Below, in pieces: positions 28,445-64,000 of a stretch of 64,000 nucleotides of DNA (the first letter of the stretch is position 1; every line of letters begins with the position of its first letter). The position numbers and the translations under genes were made by a program. The notes beneath the pieces were generated by a model that saw nothing but the letters and a program-made list of their open reading frames with translations, was not told the DNA's origin and ran no database searches. The stretch covers positions 5,583 to 69,582 of the forward strand of contig CACJRI010000003.1 of NCBI GenBank assembly GCA_902595715.1, written 5' to 3'. Origin of the DNA: an uncultured SAR86 cluster bacterium (GTDB taxonomy: Bacteria > Pseudomonadota > Gammaproteobacteria > Magnimaribacterales > AG-339-G14).

Positions 28445-28978
28445 ATGAATCTTCCAAACTTTCTTTCTATTTCAAGAATTTTTCTTTTAATCCCCATTAT
28501 TTTTCTTTTTGAATATGGCTTTTACTTTTTTTCACTAATAATCTTTGTAGTTGCCTCATTAACAGATTACTTTGATGGATATTTTGCACGCAAAATGAAT
28601 TTATCGACTAATTTAGGAGCTCTTTTGGATCTTGTTTCAGATAAACTTTTTGTATCAATACTACTAATTTGGGCAACTTATAGTTTTGAGAGTTTTTTAA
28701 TTTTTTTATCTGCTTTAATTATTATTTCTAGAGAGCTAACTATAGGGTATTTAAGAATGTATTTATTACAAAATGGTTATTCTCAAGATTCATTGAGCCC
28801 TAATTTTATGGGTAAATTTAAGACTACTTTTCAAATGATTGGCTTAGGATTATTAATTGTATCCCCGCTTAATGCGTCTCTTGCATTACTTGCCATTTAT
28901 ATAATTTTTTTAAGTTCGGTTTTTTCACTTTTATCTTTATTTTCTTATTTAATAAAGTGGATTGGATACCCTAAATAA
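28445..28978 (+). CDS. pgsA: CDP-diacylglycerol--glycerol-3-phosphate 3-phosphatidyltransferase
   Basis: 177 aa. Has PNFLSISRI and the canonical CDP-alcohol motif DYFDGYFARKMNLSTNLGALLDLVSD. The uvrC-pgsA adjacency matches other Gammaproteobacteria. Confidence 0.9.
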   Translation: MNLPNFLSISRIFLLIPIIFLFEYGFYFFSLIIFVVASLTDYFDGYFARKMNLSTNLGALLDLVSDKLFVSILLIWATYSFESFLIFLSALIIISRELTIGYLRMYLLQNGYSQDSLSPNFMGKFKTTFQMIGLGLLIVSPLNASLALLAIYIIFLSSVFSLLSLFSYLIKWIGYPK

Positions 28979-45870: not shown

Positions 45871-47147
45871 TGAAATATTGCAAGAGATGTATTTATCCTG
45901 AAAATCATCCATTGGGAATTACATTTGATGAGAGGGGTGTTTGCAGCGGGTGTCTGGTTCATGAAGAGAAATATGAAATAGATTGGGAAAAAAAGCGTGA
46001 GGAATTTGATAAATTATTATCTCAGTACAGAAATAAGTTTAACTTCCATTATGACTGCATAATACCGGTTGTTGGTTCAGGAGATGATTTTTTTGTAGTG
46101 GATACTATAAAAAATGAATTCAATATGAACCCTCTGCTTGTAACTTATAACAATCATTTCAATACTAAGGTAGGAATAAGAAACTTAGCTAGATTACTCA
46201 CAGAGTTAGATTGTGACCATATGGTTTCTACTGTTGGGCCTGAAACTGTAAAAGAGATTACAAGACTATCTATTAGAGAGCTTGGAGATATTTATTGGCA
46301 TGTTCTTGCAGGAACGCAAACATTTCCTGTTCAAGTAGCAACTAAATTAAAAATCCCTTTAATCATATGGGGTGTAAATGGTTGGTTAGACCAGGTTGGT
46401 ATGTTTTCCCATCATGATCAAGTAGAAATGACAAAAAAAGTAAGGAAAGAGCATTCTCTTAGGAGGAGAGATGCTGAATCTTTAATTGGAAAAAGTAAAA
46501 ATATTTCAATTAAAGATTTACAAGCTTTTACATACCCTTCAGATAAGCAATTAGAAAAAAACAGAGTAAGAGGTGTCTATTTGGGGAACTATGTATTTTG
46601 GGACTCTCAAAAACAAATAGAAAAAGCTATAGATAAGTTTGGTTATGAAACTATTTCTCAAGAAAGAACATTTAACAATTACGAGTCTATATATTGTTGG
46701 AATAACGCAGGAGTGCATGATTATATTAAATTTCTAAAATTTGGTTACGGGAAAGTAACAGATCATGTATGTAGAGATATAAGACTAAAAAGAATTTCTA
46801 GAGAACAAGGAATAAAGCTTGTAGAAAAATTTCAAAATGTCGAACCAGAAACTCTTGATAAATTTCTTGAATGGGTAAAGCTTTCTAAAGAAGAGTTTAT
46901 GAAATCAATCAATTCATTTAGAGATAAGCGGGCCTGGAAAGAAACAAGCAAAGGAAACTTTGTCTTAAGAGATTCAATTATCAATCATATCGATGATGAT
47001 GGTGTTGATGCTGTCAGATTAAAAGTTAGCGATCCTAGAGAGTACAAGCTGACTGAGTTAAAGGAAGAACATAATATGAATGATGATTACATTCTTTTGG
47101 GTAGAGCTTTCATTGATGAAAATAACTTCAAGGCAATCGAAGGATGA
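45870..47147 (+). CDS. N-acetyl-sugar amidotransferase paralogue 1 (WbpG/PseA/WbuX family) with a degenerate PP-loop
   Basis: 425 aa. The N-terminal zinc ribbon is MKYCKRCIYP...CSGC. It aligns with the downstream paralogue, but where that copy has SGGKDS this one has GSGDDF (46071-46091). Confidence 0.75.
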   Translation: MKYCKRCIYPENHPLGITFDERGVCSGCLVHEEKYEIDWEKKREEFDKLLSQYRNKFNFHYDCIIPVVGSGDDFFVVDTIKNEFNMNPLLVTYNNHFNTKVGIRNLARLLTELDCDHMVSTVGPETVKEITRLSIRELGDIYWHVLAGTQTFPVQVATKLKIPLIIWGVNGWLDQVGMFSHHDQVEMTKKVRKEHSLRRRDAESLIGKSKNISIKDLQAFTYPSDKQLEKNRVRGVYLGNYVFWDSQKQIEKAIDKFGYETISQERTFNNYESIYCWNNAGVHDYIKFLKFGYGKVTDHVCRDIRLKRISREQGIKLVEKFQNVEPETLDKFLEWVKLSKEEFMKSINSFRDKRAWKETSKGNFVLRDSIINHIDDDGVDAVRLKVSDPREYKLTELKEEHNMNDDYILLGRAFIDENNFKAIEG

Positions 47148-48259
47148 AATACTGTAAAAATTGTGTAATGCCAGATACAAAACCTGGAGTTTACTTAGAT
47201 GAGAGAGGTTTATGTAATGCTTGTAGGAGTCAAGAAATAAAATCACAAATTGATTGGAAAGAAAGATTTAAAGATTTAGAAAAAATAGTTTCAGAAATCA
47301 AAAAACAAAATCATCCCTTTTATGATTGTATTGTTCCTGTAAGCGGAGGAAAGGATAGTTGGGTGCAAGCACTAACTTTATCAAAGGAGCTTGGACTAAA
47401 GACACTTTGTGTAACTTTAGCTAACCACCTTCCTACAACGGAAGGAATAGCAAACCTCAATAACATGATCAAAGACCTGAATGTAGATCATATGAAAATT
47501 AATCTAAAACCAAGTTTTTATAGGTCAGTCAGAAGAAAGTGTACTATTGAACAAGGCGAACCAAATTGGGCGGAACATTGTGCAGTGTTTTCTAGCGTAG
47601 TAAATATTGCTGTCATTTACGATGTTCCACTAATTGTTTGGGGTGAAGATATAGCATTTGAGTTTGGAGGCGGCCAAAGACAAGAAAGTACTGCAAGCGC
47701 GATGGAAATTGATAGAAGCGATTTAAATAAAGAAGGAAAGGTAATTGAAGATTGGCTTGATGAAGATTTATCCGAAAGAGATACTTTTTTTTATAAATAT
47801 CCTGATTATGAGATTCTAAAACAGGCTAACATTCAAAGTATTTATCTTGGGCATTACACAAACTGGTATGGAAGAAAGAACTATGAAGAAGTTAAAGCTA
47901 GAGGTTTTTCAGAAAGAAAACTAGGACCACTATCTGGAAATTATCTTTCTTACGATAATATCGATGAAAAGCTTTGTGAAATAAATATATGGTTTAAATA
48001 TCTAAAATTTGGATTTTGGAGATCAACAGATCAGACTTGCTACGATATATGGAACAATAGGTTGACAAGAAAAGAAGCAATAAAAATAGTGAATGATCTC
48101 AGTGATCAATTCCCAGAAGAATATTTTCAAGATTTTTTAAGATTTCACAATATCTCAGAGACTGAGTTTTGGGAGATAGCTGAAAACTATAGAAATAAAG
48201 ACATTTGGGAGTTTTCAGGAAACAAGTGGAATTTAAAATACCCTCTTAAAGATATATAA
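47144..48259 (+). CDS. N-acetyl-sugar amidotransferase paralogue 2 (WbpG/PseA/WbuX family), canonical PP-loop
   Basis: 371 aa. Has MKYCKNCVMP...CNAC and the PP-loop VPVSGGKDSW (47342-47359). Confidence 0.8.
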   Translation: MKYCKNCVMPDTKPGVYLDERGLCNACRSQEIKSQIDWKERFKDLEKIVSEIKKQNHPFYDCIVPVSGGKDSWVQALTLSKELGLKTLCVTLANHLPTTEGIANLNNMIKDLNVDHMKINLKPSFYRSVRRKCTIEQGEPNWAEHCAVFSSVVNIAVIYDVPLIVWGEDIAFEFGGGQRQESTASAMEIDRSDLNKEGKVIEDWLDEDLSERDTFFYKYPDYEILKQANIQSIYLGHYTNWYGRKNYEEVKARGFSERKLGPLSGNYLSYDNIDEKLCEINIWFKYLKFGFWRSTDQTCYDIWNNRLTRKEAIKIVNDLSDQFPEEYFQDFLRFHNISETEFWEIAENYRNKDIWEFSGNKWNLKYPLKDI

Positions 48260-48292
48260 CTTCATATTTATTCATTCCTTGATAGTTTAATT

Positions 48293-49714
48293 ATGAATAG
48301 TGAAATACAAGACCAAATTAGAAAGTTTTTAGATTTTGAAAAAAGTCTTGAAATAGAGAATCTTGTTCAGAAGAACTTGTCTATCTGGCATATCTTAAGG
48401 ACTGCGGTATTTGAGGAGATCTTTAGAGAAAAAAATTTATCTTTAGGCTCGCAAAAAAATAACGACCTAAGAAAATTTTCTCTAAATCTTCAATATTTAT
48501 ACCTTCTTTTTCGAGAGATGCTTTCTTTTTCTAATATTTTTAATAAAGCAGATGTTTTGTTGATAAATAATGACCCTAAAACAAAAATAATTGATGGAAG
48601 TTTTACAACAAAATTAGTCTGGGGATTTACTAAAGCATTAGAGTCTGATTTTACGATAAGTATTTTAAATACTCAGTCAGTTCATTTAAACCCAGACTTA
48701 AATTCTATAAATGTTTCTCGAATTCTATCTTTATTCTCAAGGATGATAGCTATATTTAAAGATCTTACAGGATGGAAAATTTCAGCAAATTATTTGGATA
48801 AAAGCATAAATAAATATTTCGGGATAAGACTCGACTGGAAAAGAATTTATAGGGACAACTTCATAAGACAAGTATTCCTTGGCTACATATTAAGATTGAT
48901 TATAAAAATAAAGAGTCCCAAAATCATAATCTTCTCAGATAATGGCTCAATGAGCTTGGTGAATAAAATTGCAAATGATAGAAATATCCCAACAGTCGAT
49001 TATCAACACGCAGTTTTATCAGATTACTATATTATTTATAATCACAATGAAGGCTCTAGTTCATTGTATAAAGAACATCTCTCCGATTATTTTTTTTCAT
49101 GGGGAGAATATAGACTTGAAAGATATAAAGATAATTATAAATGCAGAGTAGTTGGTAATGCTTTCTTTGAGGAGTCAAGGAAAGAATTTATTCAAGTTAA
49201 AAAAAACCAAAAGAGCTTGCTACTTGTTTCTGACGGGAAATACACTAGAGACGAATTAGTTGATTTAGCAATTCAATTATCTAAAAAATTTAAAGATTTC
49301 ATTATTTATTACAAACTTAGACCTGAAGAGTACGAGAATTGGTTACTTAATTACCCTAAAGAATTCTCTGAAATTTCAAATATTAATGTTATCGACAATG
49401 ATGATACTAATCTCTACTACTATTTAACTCTTTGCTCTTATGTAATAGGAACGAATTCTACTGTTTTACTTGAAGCTTTGCCTATTTCACAAATTATTAT
49501 TTATAAAATAGGTTGGTTTTTCGAAATGAATGATTACATAGATGATGGTTTGTTCTTATCGGCTGATTCTTGTAGCGAAGTAATGGATCTAATTTCAAGT
49601 AAAAAAAATGCAAATGGCAAAATAAGTTCGGACTCTATATTTAAAGAAGAATCTCAGTACTTAACATATCAAAATGTAAAAGAGATTTTAGATAAAAAAT
49701 CTTTCAATGATTAG
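48293..49714 (+). CDS. hypothetical protein (possible GT-B-like surface-carbohydrate / nonulosonate transferase)
   Basis: 473 aa with no motif I can assign with confidence. The C-terminal half (SLLLVSDGKYTRDELVDLAIQLSKKF...YYKLRPEEY...SYVIGTNSTVLLEAL) has the alternating strand/helix look of a Rossmann-like GT-B half-domain. Confidence 0.35.
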   Translation: MNSEIQDQIRKFLDFEKSLEIENLVQKNLSIWHILRTAVFEEIFREKNLSLGSQKNNDLRKFSLNLQYLYLLFREMLSFSNIFNKADVLLINNDPKTKIIDGSFTTKLVWGFTKALESDFTISILNTQSVHLNPDLNSINVSRILSLFSRMIAIFKDLTGWKISANYLDKSINKYFGIRLDWKRIYRDNFIRQVFLGYILRLIIKIKSPKIIIFSDNGSMSLVNKIANDRNIPTVDYQHAVLSDYYIIYNHNEGSSSLYKEHLSDYFFSWGEYRLERYKDNYKCRVVGNAFFEESRKEFIQVKKNQKSLLLVSDGKYTRDELVDLAIQLSKKFKDFIIYYKLRPEEYENWLLNYPKEFSEISNINVIDNDDTNLYYYLTLCSYVIGTNSTVLLEALPISQIIIYKIGWFFEMNDYIDDGLFLSADSCSEVMDLISSKKNANGKISSDSIFKEESQYLTYQNVKEILDKKSFND

Positions 49715-51784: not shown

Positions 51785-52690
51785 ATGAGCAAGATTTTAG
51801 TCACTGGGGGAGCAGGCTTTATTCCAAGTCATTTAGTTGATGCCCTCGTAAAAGACAATCACGAAGTTACATCAGTGGATAATTTCGTTACTGGGAAAGA
51901 GAAAAATTTATCAACAAAAGATAATCATAGATTTATCAAGGCAGACGTAAATAACATCGATGAGATAGAGCCTATTATTAGGAATGGCGAATATGAATAT
52001 ATTTTTCACTACGCTGCTCTAGTTGGAGTTCATAGAACAATAAATAATCCTATCGGAGTTCTAAATGATTTGAGCGGACTGGAAAATCTCTTTTCCCTTG
52101 CAAAAGAAACTAAGGTAAGAAAAATATTTTTTTCTTCCTCTTCGGAAGTTTATGGAGAGCCGGTTGAATTGCCTCAGAGAGAATATCTTACCCCTCTTAA
52201 TTCAAGGTTGCCTTATGCTGTGATAAAAAATGTGGGAGAGTGTTTCTGTAAATCTTACAAGCAAGAACATGGCCTTGATTATACAATTTTTAGATTTTTC
52301 AATACTTATGGTTTGAGACAGAGCGAAGACTTTGTCGTTTCAAAGTTTTTAAAGCTCGCTAAAGAAAACAAAGACATAACTGTCTACGGAACAGGTCTGC
52401 AAACTAGAACATTTTGTTATATTGATGATCATATCGAAGCTACAACAAAAGCATTTAAAGAAAATATCTATAATAATGAAATTGTAAATATAGGTAATAA
52501 TGAAGAAACAACTATCCTTCAACTAGCTGAAACAATAATTAAAATATTAGATTCTAAATCTAAAATAATACATTTGGATCCACTAGCAGAAGGGGATATG
52601 ACAAGAAGACAGCCAGATGTCGAAAGGATGAAATCTCTTCTTAATAGAGACTTTACTACCTTAGAAAAAGGACTCAAAAAAATCATTTAA
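51785..52690 (+). CDS. NAD-dependent sugar dehydratase/decarboxylase/epimerase (UXS/RmlB-like extended SDR)
   Basis: 301 aa. Has ILVTGGAGFIPSHLVDAL (P replaces the third Gly), the catalytic YAVIKNVGE and a C-terminal RRQPDVERMKSLL, which resembles UDP-glucuronate decarboxylases. Confidence 0.7.
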   Translation: MSKILVTGGAGFIPSHLVDALVKDNHEVTSVDNFVTGKEKNLSTKDNHRFIKADVNNIDEIEPIIRNGEYEYIFHYAALVGVHRTINNPIGVLNDLSGLENLFSLAKETKVRKIFFSSSSEVYGEPVELPQREYLTPLNSRLPYAVIKNVGECFCKSYKQEHGLDYTIFRFFNTYGLRQSEDFVVSKFLKLAKENKDITVYGTGLQTRTFCYIDDHIEATTKAFKENIYNNEIVNIGNNEETTILQLAETIIKILDSKSKIIHLDPLAEGDMTRRQPDVERMKSLLNRDFTTLEKGLKKII

Positions 52691-52712: not shown

Positions 52713-54155
52713 ATGGATTTTTTTAATTTTTTCAAAGCAAGCTTTTTCTTCGTTATTACTAAGTACATAGTAATCCTATTAAATTTTATACGATCAATCA
52801 TCATAGCCTCATCATTAGGGCCAAATAGTCTTGGAGAATATGCAATATTGGTAATTATTCTTGAGTATTTCTACTATACAAATTTAGGAATCTTTTTCTC
52901 TATGACAAAAGAAGTATCAATAAATATTGATCAAAAGGGCAAACAAGAATATGTCAAGAAAATAATAAACAATACCGTATCTTTTCAATCAATAAATTCA
53001 ATTTTTGTATTAGCCTTTTTCGCCTTATTTTTTGGTTTTGAATATTATGGATTTTTTCAAATTGAAATCTTTAATACTAATTATCTATTTTATATTTTAA
53101 CTCTAGGGATAATTTACCAAGCTAAAAGCTTCATTTTCAGTTATTTACGCCTTTACGATCGAATAAATGAGATGGTTAAAATTGAGTTTTTTTCTTCCCT
53201 ATTTGTTTTTCTAGGTATTTACTTTTTTGTTGATGATTTTGGGTTAGATGCAATTTTTCTCATCAGCATCATTGTTAATTTATTTGTGCTAATTCCTTAC
53301 ATAAAAAAAATATCTAATTTTAAGTTCATTTTAGAATTGAAAATAGTACAAGTATTGATCTATGTGGGATTACCTCTCTTGTTGTTTAATTTTTTGTCAT
53401 TAATGATAACTACTATAGACAGAATTATGATTAATCAATTAGTTTCTTCTAACCGTGAAGCACTAGGAATTTACCATTTAGGTTACCTTTTATCCTTTGG
53501 AGTAATGACAGCTTTCAATTCTGTTATTTTTTTGTTGTTGCCAAAAATGTTGAAACAATTTCACTCGTCTAAAGAAGTATATTCTTTAATGTTCAATCAA
53601 ACTAAATTCACAGAATTCATTCTGGCGTCAATTTTAATTTTAGCAATCATTACCATTTCGCCATTTATCCAGTTTTTCCTTGAGGAATACAAGAGAAGTG
53701 TTTTAGTAATGCAGTTGCTTTTGTTTGCTTATTTCATGAAAGGGTTAGCTTTTCTTCCAGAAAGTTATTTAATTGCAAATAACAAACATATGAATACTTT
53801 AGTAATTTTTTTCCTTTCTTTACTAAACGCCTTATTTTTAAATTACTTCTCTATTATTTTGGGATATGGCATTTATGGGGTTGCAATTGCAACAATAGGA
53901 ACTTTCTATATTTATACAGTAGGTATTTTTTGCCTTTATTTTCATTTTGAACAAATAAAAATTTATAAAGGGATTACAAGAGTCATTTTAAGACCAATGC
54001 TTTTTATGACTATATCTACTATTTTATTATATGAAAACATTACCACGCTATGGTTGGTTATTGTTTTTCTTATATTTTATTTAAGAGATATTGTCACTTA
54101 TCTTAAAAAGACCATAAATCTATCTCAGGAACTTTTAAACTCAAAAAAGTCTTAA
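52713..54155 (+). CDS. wzx: polysaccharide flippase (Wzx, MOP superfamily)
   Basis: 480 aa with about 12-14 TM helices and no soluble domain. The length and hydrophobic profile are typical of MOP/PST proteins, and it sits inside the glycan locus. Confidence 0.7.
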   Translation: MDFFNFFKASFFFVITKYIVILLNFIRSIIIASSLGPNSLGEYAILVIILEYFYYTNLGIFFSMTKEVSINIDQKGKQEYVKKIINNTVSFQSINSIFVLAFFALFFGFEYYGFFQIEIFNTNYLFYILTLGIIYQAKSFIFSYLRLYDRINEMVKIEFFSSLFVFLGIYFFVDDFGLDAIFLISIIVNLFVLIPYIKKISNFKFILELKIVQVLIYVGLPLLLFNFLSLMITTIDRIMINQLVSSNREALGIYHLGYLLSFGVMTAFNSVIFLLLPKMLKQFHSSKEVYSLMFNQTKFTEFILASILILAIITISPFIQFFLEEYKRSVLVMQLLLFAYFMKGLAFLPESYLIANNKHMNTLVIFFLSLLNALFLNYFSIILGYGIYGVAIATIGTFYIYTVGIFCLYFHFEQIKIYKGITRVILRPMLFMTISTILLYENITTLWLVIVFLIFYLRDIVTYLKKTINLSQELLNSKKS

Positions 54156-54198: not shown

Positions 54199-54891
54199 AT
54201 GGAAAGCACAAATACATTAACCTTTAGAGATATTCTTGACGCCAGTACAGCTAACCTAACTTCTGGTGCAAATCTGACTGTAATTGATGTTTTAGTAGGG
54301 CTTGGGGCAAGTTTGATATGCGCTGCAATTATTTCTTGGACATATAGAGCAAGTTATCAGGGAGTTTTGTATCAAAAAAGTTTTAACTTATCTCTGATTT
54401 TAATTTGCCTAGTGACTACATCAGTAATAATGGTAATAAGTGGAAACCTTGTTTTATCTTTAGGAATGGTAGGAGCACTATCCATCGTAAGGTTTAGAGC
54501 TGCTATTAAAGATCCGATGGATATAGTGTATATGTTTTGGTCTGTTGCAGTAGGGATAGCTAATGGAGTAGCAAATATAAAAGTTTCTCTCACAGCAACA
54601 ATAGTCATATCAATATTAATAATCTTACTTAACAGACTTCCTTTTGGAACAATAGCTTATTTGGTCATCCTGAAATATAACGCCGATGATGAGCCTACTT
54701 TTTTGAAAGCCCTAGACCAAAACACTTCCCAATACATCATTAAGAGTAAAAATATAAAAGATGGCCAGGTTGAATTGATTGCAGAGGCACGATTAAAAAA
54801 AGATAGCGATCTTTCTAAAAATTTAACCGAGCTTAACGGTTTTGTAGACTTAAGCTTACTAGCCTACAGCAGCAATATTCTTGATAACTAA
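54199..54891 (+). CDS. DUF4956-family membrane protein
   Basis: 230 aa. It has about four TM helices with the family hallmark LGMVGALSIVRFRAAIKDPMDIVYMFWSVAVGIANG, then a soluble ~80-aa C-terminal domain. Confidence 0.75.
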   Translation: MESTNTLTFRDILDASTANLTSGANLTVIDVLVGLGASLICAAIISWTYRASYQGVLYQKSFNLSLILICLVTTSVIMVISGNLVLSLGMVGALSIVRFRAAIKDPMDIVYMFWSVAVGIANGVANIKVSLTATIVISILIILLNRLPFGTIAYLVILKYNADDEPTFLKALDQNTSQYIIKSKNIKDGQVELIAEARLKKDSDLSKNLTELNGFVDLSLLAYSSNILDN

Positions 54892-54909
54892 TACATTAAT
54901 GTATTAAAC

Positions 54910-57510
54910 ATGACTAGGATTAGATTTTTTTTTAGTTTATTTATTATTTTAATAATCCTTATAATTGGCAGTGTTTTCATAACCTCATTTTTTTATTTCA
55001 ATAATAGTTTTTATTCTAAAGCAATAGAGATCTCTAAAGATTATCCAAGATTCCAAAAAATTATTGATTTATCTGACTCCTTCTTTAATGAGATTGATTT
55101 AAGAAAGTATCTCAATGAGAGTTTTTTGCCTGAGACAAAATTAGTTAGATTGTATTTAACTGGTTCTGATCTAAAAAATATTAACGAGCAAATTGATAAG
55201 TTTAAAAATATTGGGTTTATAAGAGATGAATTAAATTATTGGCGAAAAGCGAAGATAAAAGTTAATGGCTCTGAGGAAAAAATAAAATATAAATTTCACG
55301 GCACTTCAATTTCTCCTTTAAGCAAACATAATTCAATTTCTTTTAGGATAAAGCATAAAAAAGACGGGAATTACTTGAATAATATGAGGAGATTTTCATT
55401 ACTCACTTATAAAGACGATTTAGATATATCAACAATCATCATAAATCAAATAGCATCTGACTTTGGTCTAATTTCGCCAGTTGGAAAGATGGTTGCTTTA
55501 AAGATTAATGATATTGATATTGGCATGTATATGTTAGTGGAACATCATAGTAAAGAGTGGTTTGAAAAATTTCATAAAATGACCAATTATTCACTTTTTA
55601 AATCTAATGATGATTGGGATAGAAAAGAAAATACTGGGGGAACAGCTCATTTATCTAGTTCAGATAACTTGGTAAACAACAAAGAAATAAAAGGCTCTTC
55701 CCTAGATCATGCTACAAACCTTGCCGCATTAAAGTTATTACTCGAGGCTATACAAAAAAAAGATATGGGAACTCTAAAGCAACTAATCGATTTAGATTAT
55801 GCCGCAAAATTTGTTGCATTAAATATATTGGCGAATAATGCACACCATGTTTCTGGTGATAATTTTAAATATTTATATGATCAAACAAGAGGTAAATTTA
55901 AGTTTTTATTCAGAATCGAAGACTCAATAAAACCAATTCAAAAATCATTAGAAAGTTTCAACTCCTCCTGGTTTGAAAGCTATTTTGTAAAATCTCAAAC
56001 TCTCAATCTTTTTTATCTCTTAACTCAAGATGATGAATTCAGAAATCTCAGAGACGAATATCTCATGAGATTAATTGAAAAAAAAGATCTTTTGATTGAA
56101 ACAGCCAAAAAGACTTATGATGAAAATTATGATGTTTTATATGCAAGTAAAAATTCTTTAAGGAAGGCAAACTTTTTCAAAAATGAGTTTTTTAAAAATT
56201 TAACAAACAATTTCGAAGTAATCGAACAATACTTAAATTATGGAAAAGTTTTCTTAACTTTTGAGAAAACAAATCCTTCTCAAAATTTCTATGATGTTTT
56301 ATCTGTCTTTAACGACTCATACGTAACTTCCACCTTGAAATTTAAAAATGATAAAGAAATTATTTTTAAAGAAATTCAACTAATGCCCTTAGAAATTAAA
56401 GATACATTAGATTCAAAAAATAGAATCACTAAATCTATCCTCAAAGATCAGAATTTATATTCTAAATTTGTTATAGAAAATAACGTAACGAATCAGACAC
56501 TTGCTGAGAAAGACATATATATAAATTATTTAAATAGCTTTTCTTTAATAAATTATGAAGATTCTATTTCTACTCTTAAATCTAACAACGTGAATTATTC
56601 ATTAACGAAAAAAGAGTTAATCGTTCTTCCAGGAAATTACAACATTAAAAGCGACTTAATTTTTCCTGAAAATTTAAAAATTATATTTTCAGCAGGCTCA
56701 AATTTTTTTATTGATCAAAATAAATCAATTTTAGTCAAATCAGACTTTGAAATAAAAGGTACTAGCGACATGCCAATTACTATAGAAAGTAAAACTAAAG
56801 ACAAACCTTTTGGAGTTTTAGCGATTTTTGGTAAAGAAAAAATTGCGAATGTTTTAATTAATAATCTCAGAATAAATGGAGGATCCGAGGCTTCCTTAGA
56901 AGGTGTAAGATACTTGGGTCAAATTTCAATACATAATGCGAACGTAAAAATTTTTGACTCTATTATCGAAGGAAGTAGTTCAGATGATGGGGTAAATATA
57001 AGAGACAGTGAAGTATTGATTGCAAACTCGATATTTAAGAATAATTCTGCAGATCAAATTGATTTAGACTTTTGTTCCGGAGAGGTAAATAAAAATATTT
57101 TTCTTATAAGTAAAGACAGCAAAACCAAAATTGACTTTAATGGAGATGGATTAGATCTTAGCGGGTCAAAGATAAACATCTCTGAAAATAAATTTACAGG
57201 ATTCTTAGACAAGGCTTTAAGTATTGGTGAAGAGTCAAAAGCTTTAATTAATAAAAATTTATTTGATGACAATAACAGCGCTATAACTGTGAAAGATGGT
57301 TCTCAGGCCTATGTTTTATCAAATAATTTTATGAATAATAAACAAGACTTTAGCCTTTTTATAAAAAAAAGATTTTATGATTCTCCAACTTTATTCATTA
57401 AGAAAAGCGATACCAACAGGTCAGTTCAGAATAACTTAAAGAATAAAATAAACTCTATACGATTAAGTTCCGAAGAAGAAATGAGAAGATTATATGCAAC
57501 AAATAGATAA
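54910..57510 (+). CDS. CotH-family atypical kinase homologue with N-terminal membrane anchor and C-terminal parallel beta-helix domain
   Basis: 866 aa. The N-terminal anchor is RIRFFFSLFIILIILIIGSVFITSFFYF. The CotH-like core has KIKYKFHGTSISPLSKHNSISFRIK and NAHHVSGDNFKYLYDQTRGKFKFLFRIEDS. The C-terminus carries PbH1-type repeats (NANVKIFDSIIEGSSSDDGVNIRDSEVLIANSIFKNNSADQIDL...GDGLDLSGSKINISENKF...NNSAITVKDGS). Confidence 0.75.
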   Translation: MTRIRFFFSLFIILIILIIGSVFITSFFYFNNSFYSKAIEISKDYPRFQKIIDLSDSFFNEIDLRKYLNESFLPETKLVRLYLTGSDLKNINEQIDKFKNIGFIRDELNYWRKAKIKVNGSEEKIKYKFHGTSISPLSKHNSISFRIKHKKDGNYLNNMRRFSLLTYKDDLDISTIIINQIASDFGLISPVGKMVALKINDIDIGMYMLVEHHSKEWFEKFHKMTNYSLFKSNDDWDRKENTGGTAHLSSSDNLVNNKEIKGSSLDHATNLAALKLLLEAIQKKDMGTLKQLIDLDYAAKFVALNILANNAHHVSGDNFKYLYDQTRGKFKFLFRIEDSIKPIQKSLESFNSSWFESYFVKSQTLNLFYLLTQDDEFRNLRDEYLMRLIEKKDLLIETAKKTYDENYDVLYASKNSLRKANFFKNEFFKNLTNNFEVIEQYLNYGKVFLTFEKTNPSQNFYDVLSVFNDSYVTSTLKFKNDKEIIFKEIQLMPLEIKDTLDSKNRITKSILKDQNLYSKFVIENNVTNQTLAEKDIYINYLNSFSLINYEDSISTLKSNNVNYSLTKKELIVLPGNYNIKSDLIFPENLKIIFSAGSNFFIDQNKSILVKSDFEIKGTSDMPITIESKTKDKPFGVLAIFGKEKIANVLINNLRINGGSEASLEGVRYLGQISIHNANVKIFDSIIEGSSSDDGVNIRDSEVLIANSIFKNNSADQIDLDFCSGEVNKNIFLISKDSKTKIDFNGDGLDLSGSKINISENKFTGFLDKALSIGEESKALINKNLFDDNNSAITVKDGSQAYVLSNNFMNNKQDFSLFIKKRFYDSPTLFIKKSDTNRSVQNNLKNKINSIRLSSEEEMRRLYATNR

Positions 57511-58228
57511 TCTTATAAGACAAGAGTTTAAATACTATGTCTCTGCTGAAGTTATTAGCAAATTAAGAACATATTTAAAAGAAATAATGAAGGTAGATGA
57601 GAATGCTAATTCTCAAAATAATCAATACACTATAACAAGTCTTTATTTTGATACTCCAAACGAAGAAGATTTTGAAGACAAAGTTGATGGAATTAAATCT
57701 AGAGAGAAATTTAGATTAAGATTTTATAATCAAAAAAAAGATTTAGTTAAATTTGAGTCAAAAAAAAGAGTAGAAACAGCTATAAAAAAAACGTCTTCGA
57801 TAATTCCAATACATGATGTAAGTGAGATTTTGAAGGGAAATTATGAATCGTTATTAAATAGCAACAGTGAATTTCTTAAAATATCCTATGCAAAATTAAC
57901 ATCCCGAGGATACAGACCTAAACTCATAGTTGAATATGACAGGGAGGCTTATTTTTTACCATATGGAAATATTCGAGTTACTTTTGATTTAAACTTGCGT
58001 ACATATAATTCTGAGACTGACCTTTTAAACATTTCTAATACAGCTATTCCTATTTTTGAAGATAATTTGCAAGTTCTAGAAGTAAAGCACAGTATTCCGT
58101 TACCCTCTCATTTAAAATTTGTTCTTAGTAAAATTCCTGCGGCTAGAAACGCAATTAGTAAGTTTGTTTTAGGGCATAAATATATTGAGTCATCAGCTTA
58201 TAGAGATCCAGTGAACTCGCCTTTTTAA
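57494..58228 (+). CDS. VTC-domain protein (triphosphate-tunnel fold; homologous to the polyphosphate polymerase domain of eukaryotic Vtc4)
   Basis: 244 aa, soluble. Strands with alternating charged residues (RQEFKY, YFDT, KFRLRFY, FESKKR, EYDREAY, RVTFD, LEVKH) are typical of CYTH/VTC tunnel proteins. It overlaps the CotH gene by 17 nt. Confidence 0.7.
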   Translation: MQQIDNLIRQEFKYYVSAEVISKLRTYLKEIMKVDENANSQNNQYTITSLYFDTPNEEDFEDKVDGIKSREKFRLRFYNQKKDLVKFESKKRVETAIKKTSSIIPIHDVSEILKGNYESLLNSNSEFLKISYAKLTSRGYRPKLIVEYDREAYFLPYGNIRVTFDLNLRTYNSETDLLNISNTAIPIFEDNLQVLEVKHSIPLPSHLKFVLSKIPAARNAISKFVLGHKYIESSAYRDPVNSPF

Positions 58229-58230
58229 AA

Positions 58231-59943
58231 ATGCAAAAAGAATACCATTTTAAAGCCTCTATCATCATACCCGTTCTAAATGAAGAAAGGTTCATAGAAG
58301 AATGTATCGAGTCTGTGGTAAGCAATACAGATGATATTGAAAAGATGGAAATTATAATTATTGATGGAGGAAGTGAAGATACTACTGTTGAAATAGTTAA
58401 AAAAATCTCTTCAAAATATCAAAATGTAATATTGCTCCATAATCCAAAAAAAATTACTCCTATTTCTTTAAACCTTGGCATCAAGGAGTCTTCTGGAGAA
58501 TTTATAGTTAGACTAGATGCTCATGCTCTATATTCAAAAAATTATGTAAATAAATGCATTCAAGTATTAGAAAATTCTGATGAAAATATTGGGAATGTAG
58601 GAGGATTTATTGAAACAAAATCTACAAATTCTTCGATTTTCTCTAGGGCGGTTTCTTTATGCTTATCAAGTATTTTTGGGGTAGGAATATCTAAATTTAG
58701 AATTTCTAAACCAACAAAAAAAGAATTTGTTGATACTGTTCCTTTTGGATGTTTTAGAAGGTCTTTGTTTGATGAGTTAGGTTTTTTTAATGAGGAAGAG
58801 CCTAGAAATGAAGATTTAGAGTTTAATCAAAGAATATTAAGGGCAGATAAAAAGATAATCTTAGATCCAGACATACACTCTACTTATTTTTCGAGATCAA
58901 CTCTAAATAAACTTTTCTCACAGCAATTTGATAATGGGAAAATAGTTACAAACAAATATAGAGGGAAAGAGTCTTTTCATAAACTTAGACATTTCGTTCC
59001 TTTACTTTTCTTTACTTATCTTTTATCAATTCCTTTTTTTAGTTTATTTGAAACTACATATTTTACAGAAGCTAACCTTTATCTATATCCTGGATTTCTA
59101 TATTTAATCCTAAATGTAAGTTTTAGTATTTTTATTGCATTGAGAAATAAAGATATTTTATTGTTCCCTAGTTTAATATTTGTATTTTTTGTAATTCACT
59201 TTAGTTATGGCCTAGGTTCATTTTTTGGCTTATTTCAAATTGAAAAGAAAGTTTCTCTTCAAGAATTTTTAGAAGAAACCTTTCCATATAAGTCAACATT
59301 TATAAGAAAAGATTTTGGCTTTTTCACTAACTTGGTCAAATTCTTTTCTCTCAGAGTTGCCTATTTTCTATATCTCTTTGGTCTTTCGGCGAATGCTTTG
59401 ACTATTTCATCTATCTTCATATCATCCTTTTCTTTTTACTTTCTTTATATTGGAATGACTAGTGAGAATATTTATTTTGCGATTTTAGGTTATTTGTTAA
59501 TGTGCCTTGTTCTTTTTATTGATTTTGTAGATGGTACTTTATCTAGAATAAGTAAAATAAAATATAAAACTGGAGAAGCCTTAGATAATTTACCGCCTGA
59601 CATAATAAGAGTTGGTTCTATTTTTTCTTTTGGAGTTTTGTCTGAAAATATAATTCTCATTTTAATGTCTCTAATTAGCTCTGTAATAATAACAAGATAT
59701 ATTCCCGAAACTGTAGAAAACATTAAGCCAAAACGGGACTGGATCAAAATCTTGATAGGATCAAGAATGTCAATATCAGGCTTGAGGCTAATCTCTTTAT
59801 TTTTTATGCCTAGTTTAATTTTCGTAACATTTTTATTGCCTAACTTGAAAGTTTTTTACTCATCATTTTTAGTAGCCATGTATTTTATTTTTTCTTTAAT
59901 TTGGTTGGCTTTTTCCCTAGAAGATAAGGAGTTTAAAAATTAA
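58231..59943 (+). CDS. fusion protein: family-2 glycosyltransferase + polytopic CDP-alcohol-phosphotransferase-like domain
   Basis: 570 aa. The N-terminal GT2 has ASIIIPVLNEERFIEECIESV, IIIDGGSEDTT, RLDAHA and EDLEFNQR. TM helices follow. The C-terminal domain has SANALT and DFVDGTLSRISKIKYKTGEALDNLPPD (59521-59601). This is the CDP-alcohol motif with SR for AR and a 4- rather than 3-residue final spacer. Confidence 0.7.
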   Translation: MQKEYHFKASIIIPVLNEERFIEECIESVVSNTDDIEKMEIIIIDGGSEDTTVEIVKKISSKYQNVILLHNPKKITPISLNLGIKESSGEFIVRLDAHALYSKNYVNKCIQVLENSDENIGNVGGFIETKSTNSSIFSRAVSLCLSSIFGVGISKFRISKPTKKEFVDTVPFGCFRRSLFDELGFFNEEEPRNEDLEFNQRILRADKKIILDPDIHSTYFSRSTLNKLFSQQFDNGKIVTNKYRGKESFHKLRHFVPLLFFTYLLSIPFFSLFETTYFTEANLYLYPGFLYLILNVSFSIFIALRNKDILLFPSLIFVFFVIHFSYGLGSFFGLFQIEKKVSLQEFLEETFPYKSTFIRKDFGFFTNLVKFFSLRVAYFLYLFGLSANALTISSIFISSFSFYFLYIGMTSENIYFAILGYLLMCLVLFIDFVDGTLSRISKIKYKTGEALDNLPPDIIRVGSIFSFGVLSENIILILMSLISSVIITRYIPETVENIKPKRDWIKILIGSRMSISGLRLISLFFMPSLIFVTFLLPNLKVFYSSFLVAMYFIFSLIWLAFSLEDKEFKN

Positions 59944-60010: not shown

Positions 60011-61213
60011 TTGTATTCTTTTTTTTATGCTATTTGGGGTACAAGTTGGACATTTCCATTTATTAATATTAATTATTCTTATTTATGGTTTGGTACGGCA
60101 ATAATGGCTATATTTTTTTCAAATTCAAAGAAAGTTAGCTTTGATGGTTTTTTAATAATATTTTTAATTGTAGTGTGGACGATTCTTTACTTCTTTATTG
60201 GCATTCCTGATAATCTTTCTTCGGACAGAAGTAGCGATTTTTATTATTTATTAACATATGTTCTAAAAATTTTTCTTGGAATTTTTTTAGTATTTACTTT
60301 TGTAAATTTATTTCAGAGTAATGAAGATATTAGACTTTTTTTTGTTTCTCTATGTTTGTTTATCATTCCAATAATCTTCTATCTTGCCTATAAATATTTA
60401 TATGACTATGGATTAGATTTTATAGGGGTGCAGGTAGATGACAGCCTTAGAGGAACAAAAACCTTTAAAAATTCTTTAGCAACATCATTAGTCTTGATAA
60501 CACCCTTCATTTTTGCCGGAATATTTTCTGGAAGAAATAGATTTATTTTCGTCTTAGCATTCTTTTCAGTTTTATTTTTTTTATACTACGTTAATTCCAG
60601 ATCTGCAGTAATAATTTTAATTTTTGAAATTTTATTTTTCTTTTTCTTATCACAGTCTGAGAATATTAAGAGCAACTTAAGATATATATTCATTTCCTCA
60701 GTCGTATTAATCTTCATATCTGGGATATCTCTTTCTGATTGGATTCTAAAAAATAATGCTTTTTCAGACAGTGGACTTCCAGAATATTTTCAATCTAATG
60801 AAGAAAACCTTATTGAAACTCATAGGGGATGGCTCTTGATAGAGTCATTAAATGGCTATCTTGATTCATCTTTAATGGGAAATGGCATTGCAACATTTAG
60901 AATACGCCCGACAAATCTGGACTCAAGAACAGATACTCACAATGATTATGCTCTATTGTTATATGAGCAGGGCACTATAGGGTTTGCATTAATTTTATTT
61001 TTAATAATTTGGAGAATTTCAGTTAATGTAAAATTATCGAAAAATTATAATGACAGATTCTTAGAAGCATCTTCCTGTGCTTTATTTGGATTACTTATCT
61101 CGCTACTCTTCGTGAATCTTATTCAATCTTTAGTTTTTTGGACAATCATTGCGTTTAGTTATGTTTTTTTTGATATTTACAAAAAAAATAATTTAGAAGA
61201 AAAAAATAATTGA
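60011..61213 (+). CDS. Wzy/O-antigen-ligase-family polytopic membrane protein (putative polymerase)
   Basis: 400 aa with about 10 TM helices. The periplasmic loop ends in the family motif TDTHNDYALLLYEQGTIGFALILFLIIW. The TTG start is uncertain: the frame is open upstream to 59921 without an ATG/GTG. Confidence 0.65.
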   Translation: MYSFFYAIWGTSWTFPFININYSYLWFGTAIMAIFFSNSKKVSFDGFLIIFLIVVWTILYFFIGIPDNLSSDRSSDFYYLLTYVLKIFLGIFLVFTFVNLFQSNEDIRLFFVSLCLFIIPIIFYLAYKYLYDYGLDFIGVQVDDSLRGTKTFKNSLATSLVLITPFIFAGIFSGRNRFIFVLAFFSVLFFLYYVNSRSAVIILIFEILFFFFLSQSENIKSNLRYIFISSVVLIFISGISLSDWILKNNAFSDSGLPEYFQSNEENLIETHRGWLLIESLNGYLDSSLMGNGIATFRIRPTNLDSRTDTHNDYALLLYEQGTIGFALILFLIIWRISVNVKLSKNYNDRFLEASSCALFGLLISLLFVNLIQSLVFWTIIAFSYVFFDIYKKNNLEEKNN

Positions 61214-61214: not shown

Positions 61215-63095
61215 ATGTGCGGCATATCAGGAATTTTTTCATCACAAAGACAAATTGAAGAATCTTTAAAAAAAATGTCCTTGTCTTTGTCCCATAGAGG
61301 GCCAGATCATTCTGCTATATATATTGGAAATAATTTCGGTATTGCACACAACAGATTAAGCATCATAGATTTATCGGACCAAGCGAACCAACCCATGGCG
61401 GATAATTCAGAAAGATATTTGATTAGTTTTAATGGCGAAATTTTTAATTTCAAAGAACTTCGTAACGATTTAACTAATATTGGATGTCATTTTAAGACCC
61501 AAAGTGATACTGAAGTTTTGCTAGAGGGATACTTAAAAAACGGAGAAGATTTTTTTAACAAAATTAGAGGTTTTTTTGCTATTTGTATCTATGATAAAAA
61601 AGAGGATGTAGCTATATTTTCAAGAGATATTTTTGGAAAAAAACCTCTCTATTATCATGCAAATAAAGAGGAGTTCATATTTGGCTCTGAAATAAAATCT
61701 ATTTTAGAAATTATAAAGCCAGACATAAGTGTAGATTTTAGCTCACTTTCACATTTTTTATGGAAAGGGTATTACGTCGACGGAGATACTGCTTATTCAG
61801 AAATTAAGTCTTTACTACCAGGAGAAACTCTAAAAATTTCTCGTTCTCAGGATAAATTGAATATGGAGAGAAGTTCAAAAAAAATAAAATTAACTCTCTC
61901 AAAAAAAGAACCTAAAAAAGACATAAAAGATATAGAAGAATCCTTAAAGAATTCTATAAGATATAGATTTATTTCAGATGTGCCTTTTTCTTTTCTCCTT
62001 TCGGGAGGAATAGACTCATCTCTTATTACAACGATGGCATCAGGTTTAAATAAAGAAAAAAGACTTGAAAGTCACTTTCTAGGATATGGCGCTGATGATC
62101 CTTTCAAAGATCATGCGGAGTTTGTTTCAAAAAATATCAATTCAATTCATACAAATCACGAAATGAAACTACCTAATTTTGAAGAAATTGTTCCCTTGAT
62201 GTTGAGTATTTTTGATGAACCATTTGGTGATTATTCTGCGATTCCTAGTCATGAAATTTACAAAAAAGTTAGTAAATTTAATAAAGTGGTTATTTCTGGA
62301 GATGGAGCAGATGAAATGTTTGCTGGCTATAAGGACTCTAGATTGTTTTATTTAAAGAGTTTTATTCCATCTTTCAACTTTAAAAATTTAAAGTTTCTTT
62401 CCATTTGCTACCGATTGTTAGACTCAAAATATTATTTTTTAAGAATTTTAAGTTACGCTCTATTAATTTTATTCAGCAACGATGGAATTCTTAGTATGGC
62501 AACCTATAAAGGTGGATGGAATTTACATTACAGAAAAAAATATATGACTTCTGAAGGATATAAATTAATCGGGGAAGAAAAAACTGAATTAAGGGAATTA
62601 ATGTCTTTTAATAAATCTGGGAGAGATTCTTTAGAAAGATACTTAAATTATGATTTAAAGAGATTATCATTTGATTTTCTAGTCAAAGTTGACAGAACTT
62701 CAATGAAAAATTCTCTTGAAGTTAGATCTCCTTTTTTAGATAAAAAGTTTGTAGAAAGTCTATTTCCAGTAAATCCCAATCATTTATTTAGTTTTCTTAC
62801 AAATAAAAAAAGGCTTAAAGAATTACTAGGAAAATATGGACTTCAAAAAATAGGGAGAACATCGAAACAAGGTTTTACCCCCCCCTTAGAAAAGTGGATA
62901 ACTTCAAGCGAAAGCAAAAAATTTTTGATGAAAATTTTTGAAGACCAAGACTCCATAATTTCTAAATTATTCAAATTAGATGAGCTAAAAAAAATTCTTC
63001 TTAAAGATAAATCCATTATTAAAAATAAAGCTAGATTATGGTTTTTAATGATTTTGTATGTATGGCATAAAGAAAATTTTTTAAAGTCTTCCTAA
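61215..63095 (+). CDS. asnB: asparagine synthase (glutamine-hydrolysing)-like amidotransferase (WbpS-like)
   Basis: 626 aa. It has the Ntn nucleophile MCGISGIF, HRGPD and a PP-loop FLLSGGIDSSLI. Its location in a glycan locus suggests sugar-carboxylate amidation rather than Asn synthesis. Confidence 0.8.
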   Translation: MCGISGIFSSQRQIEESLKKMSLSLSHRGPDHSAIYIGNNFGIAHNRLSIIDLSDQANQPMADNSERYLISFNGEIFNFKELRNDLTNIGCHFKTQSDTEVLLEGYLKNGEDFFNKIRGFFAICIYDKKEDVAIFSRDIFGKKPLYYHANKEEFIFGSEIKSILEIIKPDISVDFSSLSHFLWKGYYVDGDTAYSEIKSLLPGETLKISRSQDKLNMERSSKKIKLTLSKKEPKKDIKDIEESLKNSIRYRFISDVPFSFLLSGGIDSSLITTMASGLNKEKRLESHFLGYGADDPFKDHAEFVSKNINSIHTNHEMKLPNFEEIVPLMLSIFDEPFGDYSAIPSHEIYKKVSKFNKVVISGDGADEMFAGYKDSRLFYLKSFIPSFNFKNLKFLSICYRLLDSKYYFLRILSYALLILFSNDGILSMATYKGGWNLHYRKKYMTSEGYKLIGEEKTELRELMSFNKSGRDSLERYLNYDLKRLSFDFLVKVDRTSMKNSLEVRSPFLDKKFVESLFPVNPNHLFSFLTNKKRLKELLGKYGLQKIGRTSKQGFTPPLEKWITSSESKKFLMKIFEDQDSIISKLFKLDELKKILLKDKSIIKNKARLWFLMILYVWHKENFLKSS

Positions 63096-63097: not shown

Positions 63098-64000
63098 ATG
63101 AAAATATTACATATTGCCCCAATAAAGTTTCAAAAAAAATCGAAGTTTGATATGACGGGATACTTTTCCCCAGAGGGAATTTCAAACAGTGTTACAAGTC
63201 TCGCAGAAGCTCAAATGAGAAATGGAAAAAAAGTGGGCATCATTTCTTCTTTTAAGTCGGAAAAAGTAGTTTCAGAAAATATATATTGGGAAGAATTAAT
63301 TAATGTTTTATCTTGTTTTTTCCTTTTTATAAAAACGCTTAAAGTATTTGGTAAACCAGATGTACTTCACATTCATGACATATATAACCTAAGGCAATTA
63401 TTTTTTTCACTTTTTTACATTATTTTGGGAGTTAAGATATTTATTTCTCCAAGAGGATCTTTTTCAGAAGTAGCTTTATCAAGAAGTAAAATAAAAAAGC
63501 AGTTTTTTTTGTTTTTTTTTAGAATCTATACTTTTTTTATTTATTCTTTTTCAGCATTAAATGTTGAAGAAAAGAAACAAATTAGAAAGATGTTTAAAAA
63601 AAAGAAAATAATAATTATAGGAAACGGATGCAATCTTGATGAAGATAGAATACGAAGACTTAACAAAGTCTTTTTAAAAAAAAACAAGACGGAAATAATC
63701 ACAGTAGGGTTTCTAGGAAGATTTGATGTAACTATCAAAGGATTGGACTGTTTATTGAGGGCTTATAAAGCCTATCAAGAAAATTCAAAAAAGTTAAAAG
63801 TAAATCTTTGTTTTATTGGGGAACATAGATCAAAGGAAATTGATAGTGAAATATTTTTTAATAAAATGAAAAACGAAATGGTTTACCCAAATAAGTTTTT
63901 TGTTAAAAATTCAATTTATGGTGAAGAAAAGTGGCATGAATTAGCAAGATTTGATTTACTTGCGCTTCCTTCAAGATCGGAAGGAATGCCAAACGTAGTT
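63098..64000 (+). CDS. GT4-type (GT-B) glycosyltransferase, N-terminal 301 codons; continues beyond the window end
   Basis: The ORF runs off the window and so is not in the track. My translation is MKILHIAPIKF...ISPRGSFSEVALSR...ITVGFLGRFDVTIKGLDCLLRAY...FDLLALPSRSEGMPNVV. The last stretch is the start of the GT4 E-x7-E region. Confidence 0.75.
   Translation, partial: MKILHIAPIKFQKKSKFDMTGYFSPEGISNSVTSLAEAQMRNGKKVGIISSFKSEKVVSENIYWEELINVLSCFFLFIKTLKVFGKPDVLHIHDIYNLRQLFFSLFYIILGVKIFISPRGSFSEVALSRSKIKKQFFLFFFRIYTFFIYSFSALNVEEKKQIRKMFKKKKIIIIGNGCNLDEDRIRRLNKVFLKKNKTEIITVGFLGRFDVTIKGLDCLLRAYKAYQENSKKLKVNLCFIGEHRSKEIDSEIFFNKMKNEMVYPNKFFVKNSIYGEEKWHELARFDLLALPSRSEGMPNVV

Follow-up and report, generated by a model that had tools for sequence, protein, structure and literature searches.

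A glycosyltransferase fused to a CDP-alcohol-phosphotransferase-like domain with a variant signature motif in a SAR86 surface-glycan cluster

CDP-alcohol phosphotransferases (CDP, cytidine diphosphate) are known as enzymes of lipid and compatible-solute synthesis. The studied members include AF2299 and IPCT-DIPPS of Archaeoglobus fulgidus, which use soluble CDP-glycerol or CDP-inositol, and PgsA, PgsA1/PIP synthase and PssA, which use CDP-diacylglycerol. The published family rule is a set of eight absolutely conserved residues, of which the fourth aspartate (D4) is the presumed catalytic base and is always directly followed by a basic residue (PMC4634129, PMC6506517), and a cytosine-contacting motif, P(D/N)xx(T/S), has been defined at the start of the first transmembrane helix, TM1 (PMC4634129). 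In a Gram-positive cell-wall polysaccharide cluster of Schaalia odontolytica, APY09_00535 encodes a CDP-alcohol phosphatidyltransferase beside a glycerol-3-phosphate cytidylyltransferase, with a role assigned by annotation only (PMC11032452). The lipocone paper mentions CDP-alcohol phosphotransferases solely as unrelated enzymes, and in the literature we found no characterised precedent for the fusion described below, for CDP-alcohol phosphotransferases in O-antigen or capsule synthesis, or for a route to a glycerate-type substituent that combines GAPDH with a cytidylyltransferase. Here we analyze a gene at 58231..59943 (+ strand) of a 64,000-nucleotide stretch of DNA from an uncultured SAR86 cluster bacterium (contig CACJRI010000003.1), which we call the window. 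According to the list of open reading frames (ORFs) and to Pfam (PF00535 and PF01066), this gene starts with ATG and encodes a 570-amino-acid (aa) protein that joins an ExoA-like family-2 glycosyltransferase (GT2) to a CDP-alcohol-phosphotransferase-like domain. We lean, with somewhat better than even confidence, toward reading it as a bifunctional inner-membrane enzyme of a Wzx/Wzy surface-glycan pathway, which would couple GT2 sugar addition to phospho-alcohol transfer from a CDP donor.

The C-terminal domain (aa 340-570; 59248..59940, +) matches a family of stand-alone proteins of about 230 aa from end to end, and Pfam, AlphaFold and Foldseek all bear on its identity. PF01066 (CDP-OH_P_transf) scored 26.7 bits on aa 387-521, the curated cut-off being 22 bits, and a single-sequence phmmer search of the domain against PDB sequences gave no match. 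When the profile of a 50-member family was run against the PDB with hmmsearch, AF2299 came first (E 4.4e-13), followed by PgsA1, PIP synthase, PssA, DIPPS, choline phosphotransferases and PgsA. The 50-sequence alignment was also used to build an AlphaFold model of the last 231 aa, which had a predicted local distance difference test score (pLDDT) of 96.2 and a predicted template modeling score (pTM) of 0.90, and which fits the family layout of six transmembrane helices and a juxtamembrane helix around a cytoplasm-facing polar cavity. In Foldseek, CDP-alcohol phosphotransferases took ranks 1-20 and 26 of the first 28 places for this model; AF2299 was the best match (E 4e-3, TM-score 0.54), and PIPS, DIPPS and PgsA were also found. 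The window's own pgsA (28445..28978), which scores 109.7 bits with PF01066, aligned with the family profile in hhalign at 81% probability (E 1.2e-5). A preliminary description of this DNA had called the C-terminal half CDP-alcohol-phosphotransferase-like and proposed a structure prediction, and the profile and fold matches both bear it out. By sequence and model, the domain is a true but remote member of the CDP-alcohol phosphotransferase fold.

We next turn to the residues expected to carry catalysis. At aa 386-391 (59386..59403, +), the peptide SANALT corresponds in the alignments to the P(D/N)xx(T/S) motif that opens TM1; it has A for P and keeps N and T, and stand-alone members often have D for T. 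The signature itself, DFVDGTLSRISKIKYKTGEALDNLPPD (aa 431-457; 59521..59601, +), was delimited in alignments of the fusions and of the 50- and 87-member families and reads D431-x2-D434-G-x2-S-R-x8-G448-x3-D452-N-L-P-P456-D457, followed by R460. As the preliminary description stated, the pgsA gene of the window carries the canonical DYFDGYFARKMNLSTNLGALLDLVSD. Six of the eight signature residues are present in the domain (D431, D434, G435, R439, G448 and D452); it departs from the strict signature in having S438 for A and, at the D4 site, Pro456 with the Asp one position further on. No variation occurs at D431, D434, G435, G448 and D452 among 50 family members that are 19-53% identical to the window's domain. 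The same five residues and P456 are invariant in 21 fusions, 20 of which also have D457. The residue before R439 is A in most of the fusions and of the family and S only in close relatives of the window's protein; the SR for AR noted earlier thus holds for this protein and those relatives and fails as a family trait. Among 87 family representatives, the position five residues after the third aspartate (D3+5) is D or E in 59, and D3+8 is R or K in 78. In the alignments, the S-for-A change is a local quirk, and the displaced fourth aspartate (P, then D, with R three further) marks a small clade in which the metal ligands D1-D3 are kept and D4 is consistently replaced by the pattern P-[DE]-x-x-R. 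In the domain model, DSSP assigns a helix break at N453, between D452 and P455-P456-D457, and this break could re-register Asp457 into place. We infer that Asp457 is the displaced catalytic base, and catalytic competence is predicted on that basis.

The N-terminal half contains a cytoplasmic GT2 catalytic domain (aa 1-245; 58231..58965, +), matched by PF00535 over aa 10-183 with 96.3 bits. It has the GT-A catalytic motifs of the GT2 family (D, DxD/DxH, ED and Q-x-x-[RN]-[WG]), and in the alignment of 21 fusions D45, D96-A-H98, E194-D195 and Q231..N235-G236 are invariant. The peptides singled out in the preliminary description, IIIPVLNEE (aa 11-19), IIDGGSEDTT (aa 43-52), RLDAHA (aa 94-99) and EDLEFNQR (aa 194-201), all lie in the same 570-aa frame. 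Only sub-threshold matches were obtained for the fusion in NCBIfam, to PgaC/IcaA and ExoA-type GT2s and, with 32 bits, to archaetidylinositol phosphate synthase. The AlphaFold model of the full protein (pLDDT 82.6) retrieved GT2 enzymes in Foldseek, with the membrane-embedded Chlorella virus hyaluronan synthase on top. Over the N-terminal 335 aa, identity is 40-56% to unfused ExoA-like GT2s of 323-353 aa and 42% to a Thermosipho africanus protein whose name, ExoA, comes from annotation only.

Three hydrophobic helices follow the catalytic domain (aa 254-274, 283-305 and 311-333; 58990..59229, +), as judged from AlphaFold secondary structure, hydropathy and charge counts. The third carries the motif H323-x2-Y-G-x-G-S-x2-G, which does not vary among the fusions and also occurs in 54 of 66 unfused ExoA-like GT2s; the unfused proteins stop soon after it, the examples shown mostly with a lysine-rich tail. 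The preliminary description took the GT2 to be soluble, a view that does not hold: like unfused ExoA-like GT2s, this half brings along its own three hydrophobic helices (aa 254-333) and is membrane-anchored. Counts of lysine and arginine assign to the cytoplasm the stretch that leads into helix 1, the helix 2-3 loop and the linker of 30 residues. In the second domain they place the TM2-3 and TM4-5 loops there as well, and the charge distribution of this domain fits an N-in, C-in topology. Because of these counts, both catalytic sites are taken to face the cytoplasm. Since both flanking domains appear cytoplasmic, and an odd number of crossings is then impossible, one of the three GT2 helices would not be a full crossing; the third may be an interfacial or re-entrant element that touches the lipid-linked acceptor.

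The two halves are real and conserved as one gene. A full-length search recovered about 55 clusters of proteins of 562-584 aa, all from marine assemblies, that cover the whole query at 37-100% identity and are, where named, called 'glycosyltransferase family 2 protein'; the architecture search that the preliminary description recommended therefore found the same two-domain gene in about 55 marine protein clusters. Genome matches included a SAR86 single-cell genome (L001; fusion 86% identical), which as the closest genome points to SAR86 as the probable source of the window, a Pelagibacteraceae single-cell genome (fusion 37% identical over the full length and 32% over the C-terminal domain), and a metagenome-assembled genome labeled Flavobacteriales (L002, JAYNHP010000009.1; fusion 78% identical), whose locus is gene-for-gene syntenic with that of SAR86. 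Gene by gene, the L002 locus is 76-93% identical to the SAR86 single-cell locus L001, and the Flavobacteriales label is probably due to mis-binning, recent transfer being less likely.

To place the domain among its relatives, we compared its profile with 1.84 billion representative proteins and obtained 295 matches at E <= 1e-3. The best 150 of these 295 comprise three fusions and otherwise stand-alone proteins, mostly of 220-260 aa, together with shorter fragments. The stand-alone proteins start exactly at about residue 340 of the fusion (M..F..F...FP....F.R...). Because the GT2 half matches unfused GT2s and the second domain matches stand-alone proteins of about 230 aa, the gene is a clean head-to-tail fusion of two proteins that are usually found separately. 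We then collected 47 loci and annotated them by blastp against the proteins of the window and of one of these loci, L011. In SAR86-like loci and in many Pelagibacter-like ones, the CDP-alcohol-phosphotransferase-like gene is fused to an ExoA-like GT2. In L005, L037 and L039 it is split from the GT2 gene and adjacent to or overlapping it, in L007 and L008 it overlaps a GT4 glycosyltransferase gene, and in L034, L036 and L038 it stands alone, with the GT2 gene elsewhere in the locus. By sequence, then, the clade consists mostly of proteins of about 230 aa encoded beside, and sometimes overlapping, a glycosyltransferase gene in Wzx/Wzy glycan clusters. This fusion and fission with a glycosyltransferase gene across clades is the strongest argument that both activities would act on the same intermediate.

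A whole module recurs with the domain, at 25-60% identity across loci. Its first part comprises, in order, a TviB-like gene (not in all loci), an epimerase, the ExoA-like GT2, the CDP-alcohol-phosphotransferase-like domain, Wzy, AsnB and GT4; a GAPDH-like gene, AroB-like and short-chain dehydrogenase/reductase (SDR) genes (some loci only), a kinase-like gene, a LicC-like gene and a methyltransferase gene follow. In the 15 loci of at least 15 kb, AsnB was found in 15, the GAPDH-like gene in 14, GT4 in 14 and the LicC-like gene in 10; in two loci the LicC-like gene was unseen because the contig ends. The GAPDH-like gene, which overlaps the CDP-alcohol-phosphotransferase-like gene in L005 and L006, is described as its most constant neighbor.

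The genes past the window end were read on contigs with an identical or near-identical copy of the fusion protein (L011 and L010). They encode GT4, a GAPDH paralogue, an AroB-like enzyme, an SDR, a 222-aa kinase-like protein, a 238-aa nucleoside triphosphate (NTP) transferase and a methyltransferase, and sequences in the 90% clusters of these downstream proteins also occur on a 166-kb NCBI contig that holds the fusion protein. The GAPDH paralogue (345 aa; L011:16013-17050, about 6 kb past the window end) has SICDAT for SCTTN and keeps Cys and His, which suggests a three-carbon (C3) unit. The run from the AroB-like gene to the methyltransferase (L011:17047-21134) looks, by its gene content, like a pathway for an activated small phospho-compound. 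In it, the AroB-like enzyme scores 256 bits on aroB, below the cut-off, and the kinase-like protein, whose gene adjoins the LicC-like gene, has a weak DUF6206 match and a DPHIKN...VDTF motif. The search for a cytidylyltransferase advised in the preliminary description led to the NTP transferase of the same cluster, a LicC/PntC/IPCT-like protein (L011:19633-20349) about 8 kb downstream of the fusion and outside the window. Its PDB relatives are LicC (1jyk, E 3.6e-14), the PntC domain of a phosphonate enzyme and inositol-phosphate cytidylyltransferases, and Tara annotation assigns it to COG1213. In L007, an unrelated locus, a LicC-like gene lies directly after the stand-alone CDP-alcohol-phosphotransferase-like gene, and its product is 36% identical over its full length to the L011 NTP transferase. 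A CDP-activated alcohol donor is thus predicted to be available, through a LicC-like enzyme of predicted nucleotide specificity.

Building on the two domain identities, the fold, the conservation of D1-D3, the fusion and fission with a glycosyltransferase gene and the gene neighborhood, we can outline how catalysis through Asp457, a class of donor, an acceptor and an alcohol X might fit together. Working at the cytoplasmic face, the ExoA-like GT2 would extend the undecaprenyl-diphosphate-linked repeat unit by one sugar; the constant TviB-like and epimerase neighbors make a sugar of the uronic-acid type a possible donor. The alcohol would probably be phosphorylated by the kinase-like protein and then converted to CDP-X by the LicC-like enzyme of the cluster. 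A C3 unit, the product of the constant GAPDH paralogue, is the probable source of X, to which the AroB-like enzyme with the SDR, or a split transketolase, may contribute in some loci; these optional genes suggest variants of X. As candidates for X we considered glycerol-2-phosphate (by analogy with pneumococcal gtp1-3), a glycerate-type C3 acid and a cyclitol. The CDP-alcohol-phosphotransferase-like domain would move P-X from soluble CDP-X to a hydroxyl of the newly added sugar, releasing cytidine monophosphate (CMP). A phosphodiester-linked substituent would remain, and the unit would be flipped by Wzx and polymerized by Wzy. The surface sugar chain thus probably carries a phosphate-linked decoration.

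Several observations speak against this bifunctional enzyme. The PF01066 score is just 4.7 bits over the cut-off, and precomputed annotation misses the domain in many relatives. The canonical D4 site (D3+4) is P, N or C, with D in only 2 of the 87 representatives, so that the altered, four-residue last spacer pointed out in the preliminary description is a clade-wide displacement of the fourth aspartate. About one third of the clade, and 1 of the 21 fusions, do not have the displaced acid at D3+5 either. The basic residue expected right after D4 is shifted to D3+8, and in PIP synthase the D-to-N change of D4 (D93N) nearly abolishes activity (PMC4634129). Moreover, Pelagibacter-type loci have no LicC-like gene within the available DNA and instead carry, as read at L003:6484-8794, L003:13539-14255 and L039:16683-19133, a split transketolase, a Bac_transf initiating transferase and a KdsB-like cytidylyltransferase, together with a 540-aa HMGL-like aldolase/synthase. 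The loss of the canonical acid, along with the A-to-S and P-to-A changes within nucleotide-contacting motifs, could mean that catalysis has been lost and that the domain acts as a scaffold in the membrane, or holds substrate for the glycosyltransferase by binding a nucleotide or a lipid-linked intermediate. We consider this unlikely, given that D1, D2, G1, G2 and D3 stay invariant at such low identity, that a basic residue at D3+8 is so widely kept, which is unlike the decay of an active site, and that the domain persists as a gene of its own, often translationally coupled to a GAPDH-like or glycosyltransferase gene.

The choice of donor can also be questioned. Apart from thermophile solute synthesis, the well-studied bacterial members of the fold use CDP-diacylglycerol, and the domain sits in the membrane beside a lipid-directed GT2; it might then phosphatidylate a sugar or glycan to give a glycolipid or a lipid anchor for the polymer. 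Such a donor is less likely because AF2299, the best sequence match, takes soluble CDP-glycerol and because a dedicated cytidylyltransferase co-occurs with the family, as does the kinase-like gene, implying a soluble CDP-X; a cluster with Wzx, Wzy and Wzz, moreover, assembles on undecaprenyl diphosphate and has no need of a phosphatidyl anchor. We regard phosphatidyl transfer as distinctly unlikely. The altered catalytic geometry might alternatively reflect other chemistry on the fold, with a CMP-nonulosonate or CMP-phosphonate donor, or with transfer to undecaprenyl phosphate in place of a sugar hydroxyl. The window holds a full nonulosonic-acid pathway with a CMP-sugar synthetase and, among its genes with Pfam matches, no recognizable nonulosonate transferase, and PntC, a PDB relative of the NTP transferase, makes CMP-aminoethylphosphonate. 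Yet phosphoenolpyruvate mutase was not seen among the genes scanned, three ORFs outside any family (45870-49714) could supply the missing transferase, L007 and L009 are without nonulosonate genes in the available DNA, and no such chemistry has a precedent on the CDP-alcohol phosphotransferase fold, so that we hold it to be quite improbable. As for a sequencing or assembly frameshift that would make these two genes, which the preliminary description had named as a possible objection and which the split, overlapping genes of some other loci might recall, the ORFs of 562-584 aa run unbroken through dozens of independent assemblies and two single-cell genomes, and we ruled it out as having a negligible chance of being correct. 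The reading that we favor is that of an enzyme with two activities, a GT2 and a phospho-alcohol transferase with a soluble CDP donor.

Directly upstream of the fusion lies a triad of DUF4956, CotH (866 aa, with a NosD-like beta-helix) and VTC genes (54199..58228, +; Pfam). The stop codon of the VTC gene ends at 58228, so the 2-nucleotide gap before the fusion ATG at 58231 is as previously described. The tie to the triad that was proposed on this ground comes down to adjacency. The triad is found in many loci, including the rearranged L034 and L036 at 41-57% identity, and is absent from the close relatives L018 and L020, in which the fusion directly follows Wzx, and from the Pelagibacter-type and L005/L037 loci. 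Since the fusion occurs on its own, with no triad, in L018, in L020 and in the Pelagibacter-type loci, an obligatory coupling of the two is ruled out, and the triad is a frequent but dispensable accessory of the fusion. The triad is also known from the vicinity of Gram-positive pel operons (bioRxiv 10.1101/768473). Our guess is that it makes and exports polyphosphate for an outside kinase.

From 29 kb onward, the window is one long surface-glycan cluster that includes Wzz, Wzx and Wzy. TviB-like (526 bits) and TviC-like (398 bits) genes at 29896-32202, identified in an NCBIfam/Pfam scan, suggest a building block of UDP-GalNAcA and, with the constant AsnB, an amidated uronic acid in the glycan. 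They are followed at 33175-45870 by a complete pathway for a nonulosonic acid of the legionaminic or pseudaminic type (Pfam), with two DegT aminotransferases, WbqC, a UDP-GlcNAc 2-epimerase-type hydrolase, PIG-L, NeuB, a formyltransferase, a PtmE-like CBS-NTP transferase, a GFO oxidoreductase, a CMP-sugar synthetase, an SDR and a HisH/HisF-like pair. Two genes of this pathway, those for the PtmE-like CBS-NTP transferase and the CMP-nonulosonate synthetase, were the candidates for a donor cytidylyltransferase inside the window and were rejected as belonging to nonulosonic acid synthesis. The three consecutive ORFs at 45870-49714 (425, 371 and 473 aa), the middle one with faint PP-loop ATPase-like matches, have no Pfam family and are candidates for the missing transferases of the cluster. 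An AT3-SGNH acyltransferase gene lies between them and an SDR epimerase/dehydratase-type gene (51785..52690, +; Pfam, synteny). The latter has no specific NCBIfam equivalog; its homologue lies directly upstream of the GT2 gene in Pelagibacter-type and split loci and is syntenic in SAR86-like loci, and it may make the sugar donor of the GT2. A Wzx-type flippase (52713..54155, +; PF01943) precedes the triad, and the fusion is followed by a Wzy-type polymerase or O-antigen-ligase-like gene (60011..61213, +; PF04932, TIGR04370) that is syntenic with it in most loci, by the AsnB-type glutamine amidotransferase (61215..63095, +; Pfam, NCBIfam), and by the start of the GT4 gene (63098..64000, +), which is cut by the window end and was placed from the L011 and L010 gene tables and blastp synteny. 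Among the genes scanned (21.8-64 kb of the window, and L011), we found no TagF/TarL-type polymerase, no TagD or TarI/J donor pathway and no ABC exporter, and the teichoic-acid-like polymer proposed in the preliminary description lacks support in what is a Wzx/Wzy heteropolysaccharide cluster. Because of this setting, the more likely product is a phospho-alcohol attached as a side group, or a single phosphodiester within the chain of each repeat.

A wider proposal, which we put forward tentatively and rate as rather doubtful, is that the domain is the first recognized member of a distinct clade of CDP-alcohol phosphotransferases that act on glycans and not on lipids or solutes, and that install an undescribed phospho-substituent on the surface polysaccharides of SAR86 and SAR11, the most abundant marine heterotrophs, by means of the GAPDH/kinase-like/LicC-like/methyltransferase module, often with the VTC/CotH/DUF4956 phosphate-handling triad. 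Its putative signature would be D-x2-DG-x2-[AS][RK]-x8-G-x3-D-x4-[DE]-x2-R. If true, a glycan-decorating clade with a shifted acid would widen the chemistry of the family and call into question the rule of eight absolutely conserved residues. With a module conserved from SAR86 to Pelagibacteraceae, a large share of ocean bacteria would display the predicted decoration on their cells, and this, if real, would bear on phage recognition, on grazing and on the use of phosphorus in phosphorus-poor water. The plain annotation 'glycosyltransferase family 2' overlooks the predicted second activity.

Compared with described systems, neither the fold nor the Lic-like logic is unusual; what stands out is the altered catalytic signature, the setting in glycan assembly and the broad occurrence in SAR86 and SAR11. 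The domain shares with AF2299 and IPCT-DIPPS the six-helix fold with its juxtamembrane helix and the retained D1xxD2GxxAR...GxxxD3, AF2299 being its best sequence match, and it is paired, as in IPCT-DIPPS, with a LicC/IPCT-type cytidylyltransferase, which is fused in DIPPS and encoded in the same cluster here. It differs from them in the displacement of D4 by one, with Pro at the canonical site and the basic residue at D3+8, in serving glycan assembly instead of solute or lipid synthesis, and, relative to IPCT-DIPPS, in having a glycosyltransferase and not a cytidylyltransferase as its fusion partner. With PgsA, PgsA1/PIP synthase and PssA, including the pgsA of the window, it has the Pfam family and fold in common, although the similarity is remote and those enzymes keep all eight signature residues and are encoded by housekeeping genes that lie away from glycan clusters. 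ExoA of Sinorhizobium meliloti succinoglycan synthesis and the ExoA-like GT2s have the same helices and H-x2-YGxGS-x2-G motif and end after the third helix, where the protein described here continues into a second whole enzyme domain. APY09_00535 belongs to the same Pfam family and likewise has cytidylyltransferase and glycosyltransferase genes for neighbors in a surface-glycan cluster; that gene is unfused, and the likeness is one of Pfam family and gene context. The order of steps, from a kinase through a LicC-type cytidylyltransferase to transfer onto a glycan, is that of the Lic pathway (LicA, LicC, LicD) and of the pneumococcal CDP-2-glycerol pathway (gtp1-3 with wchX; PMC1391919), the latter a likeness by function, and the transferase here has the CDP-alcohol phosphotransferase fold where that of the Lic pathway is of the LicD type.

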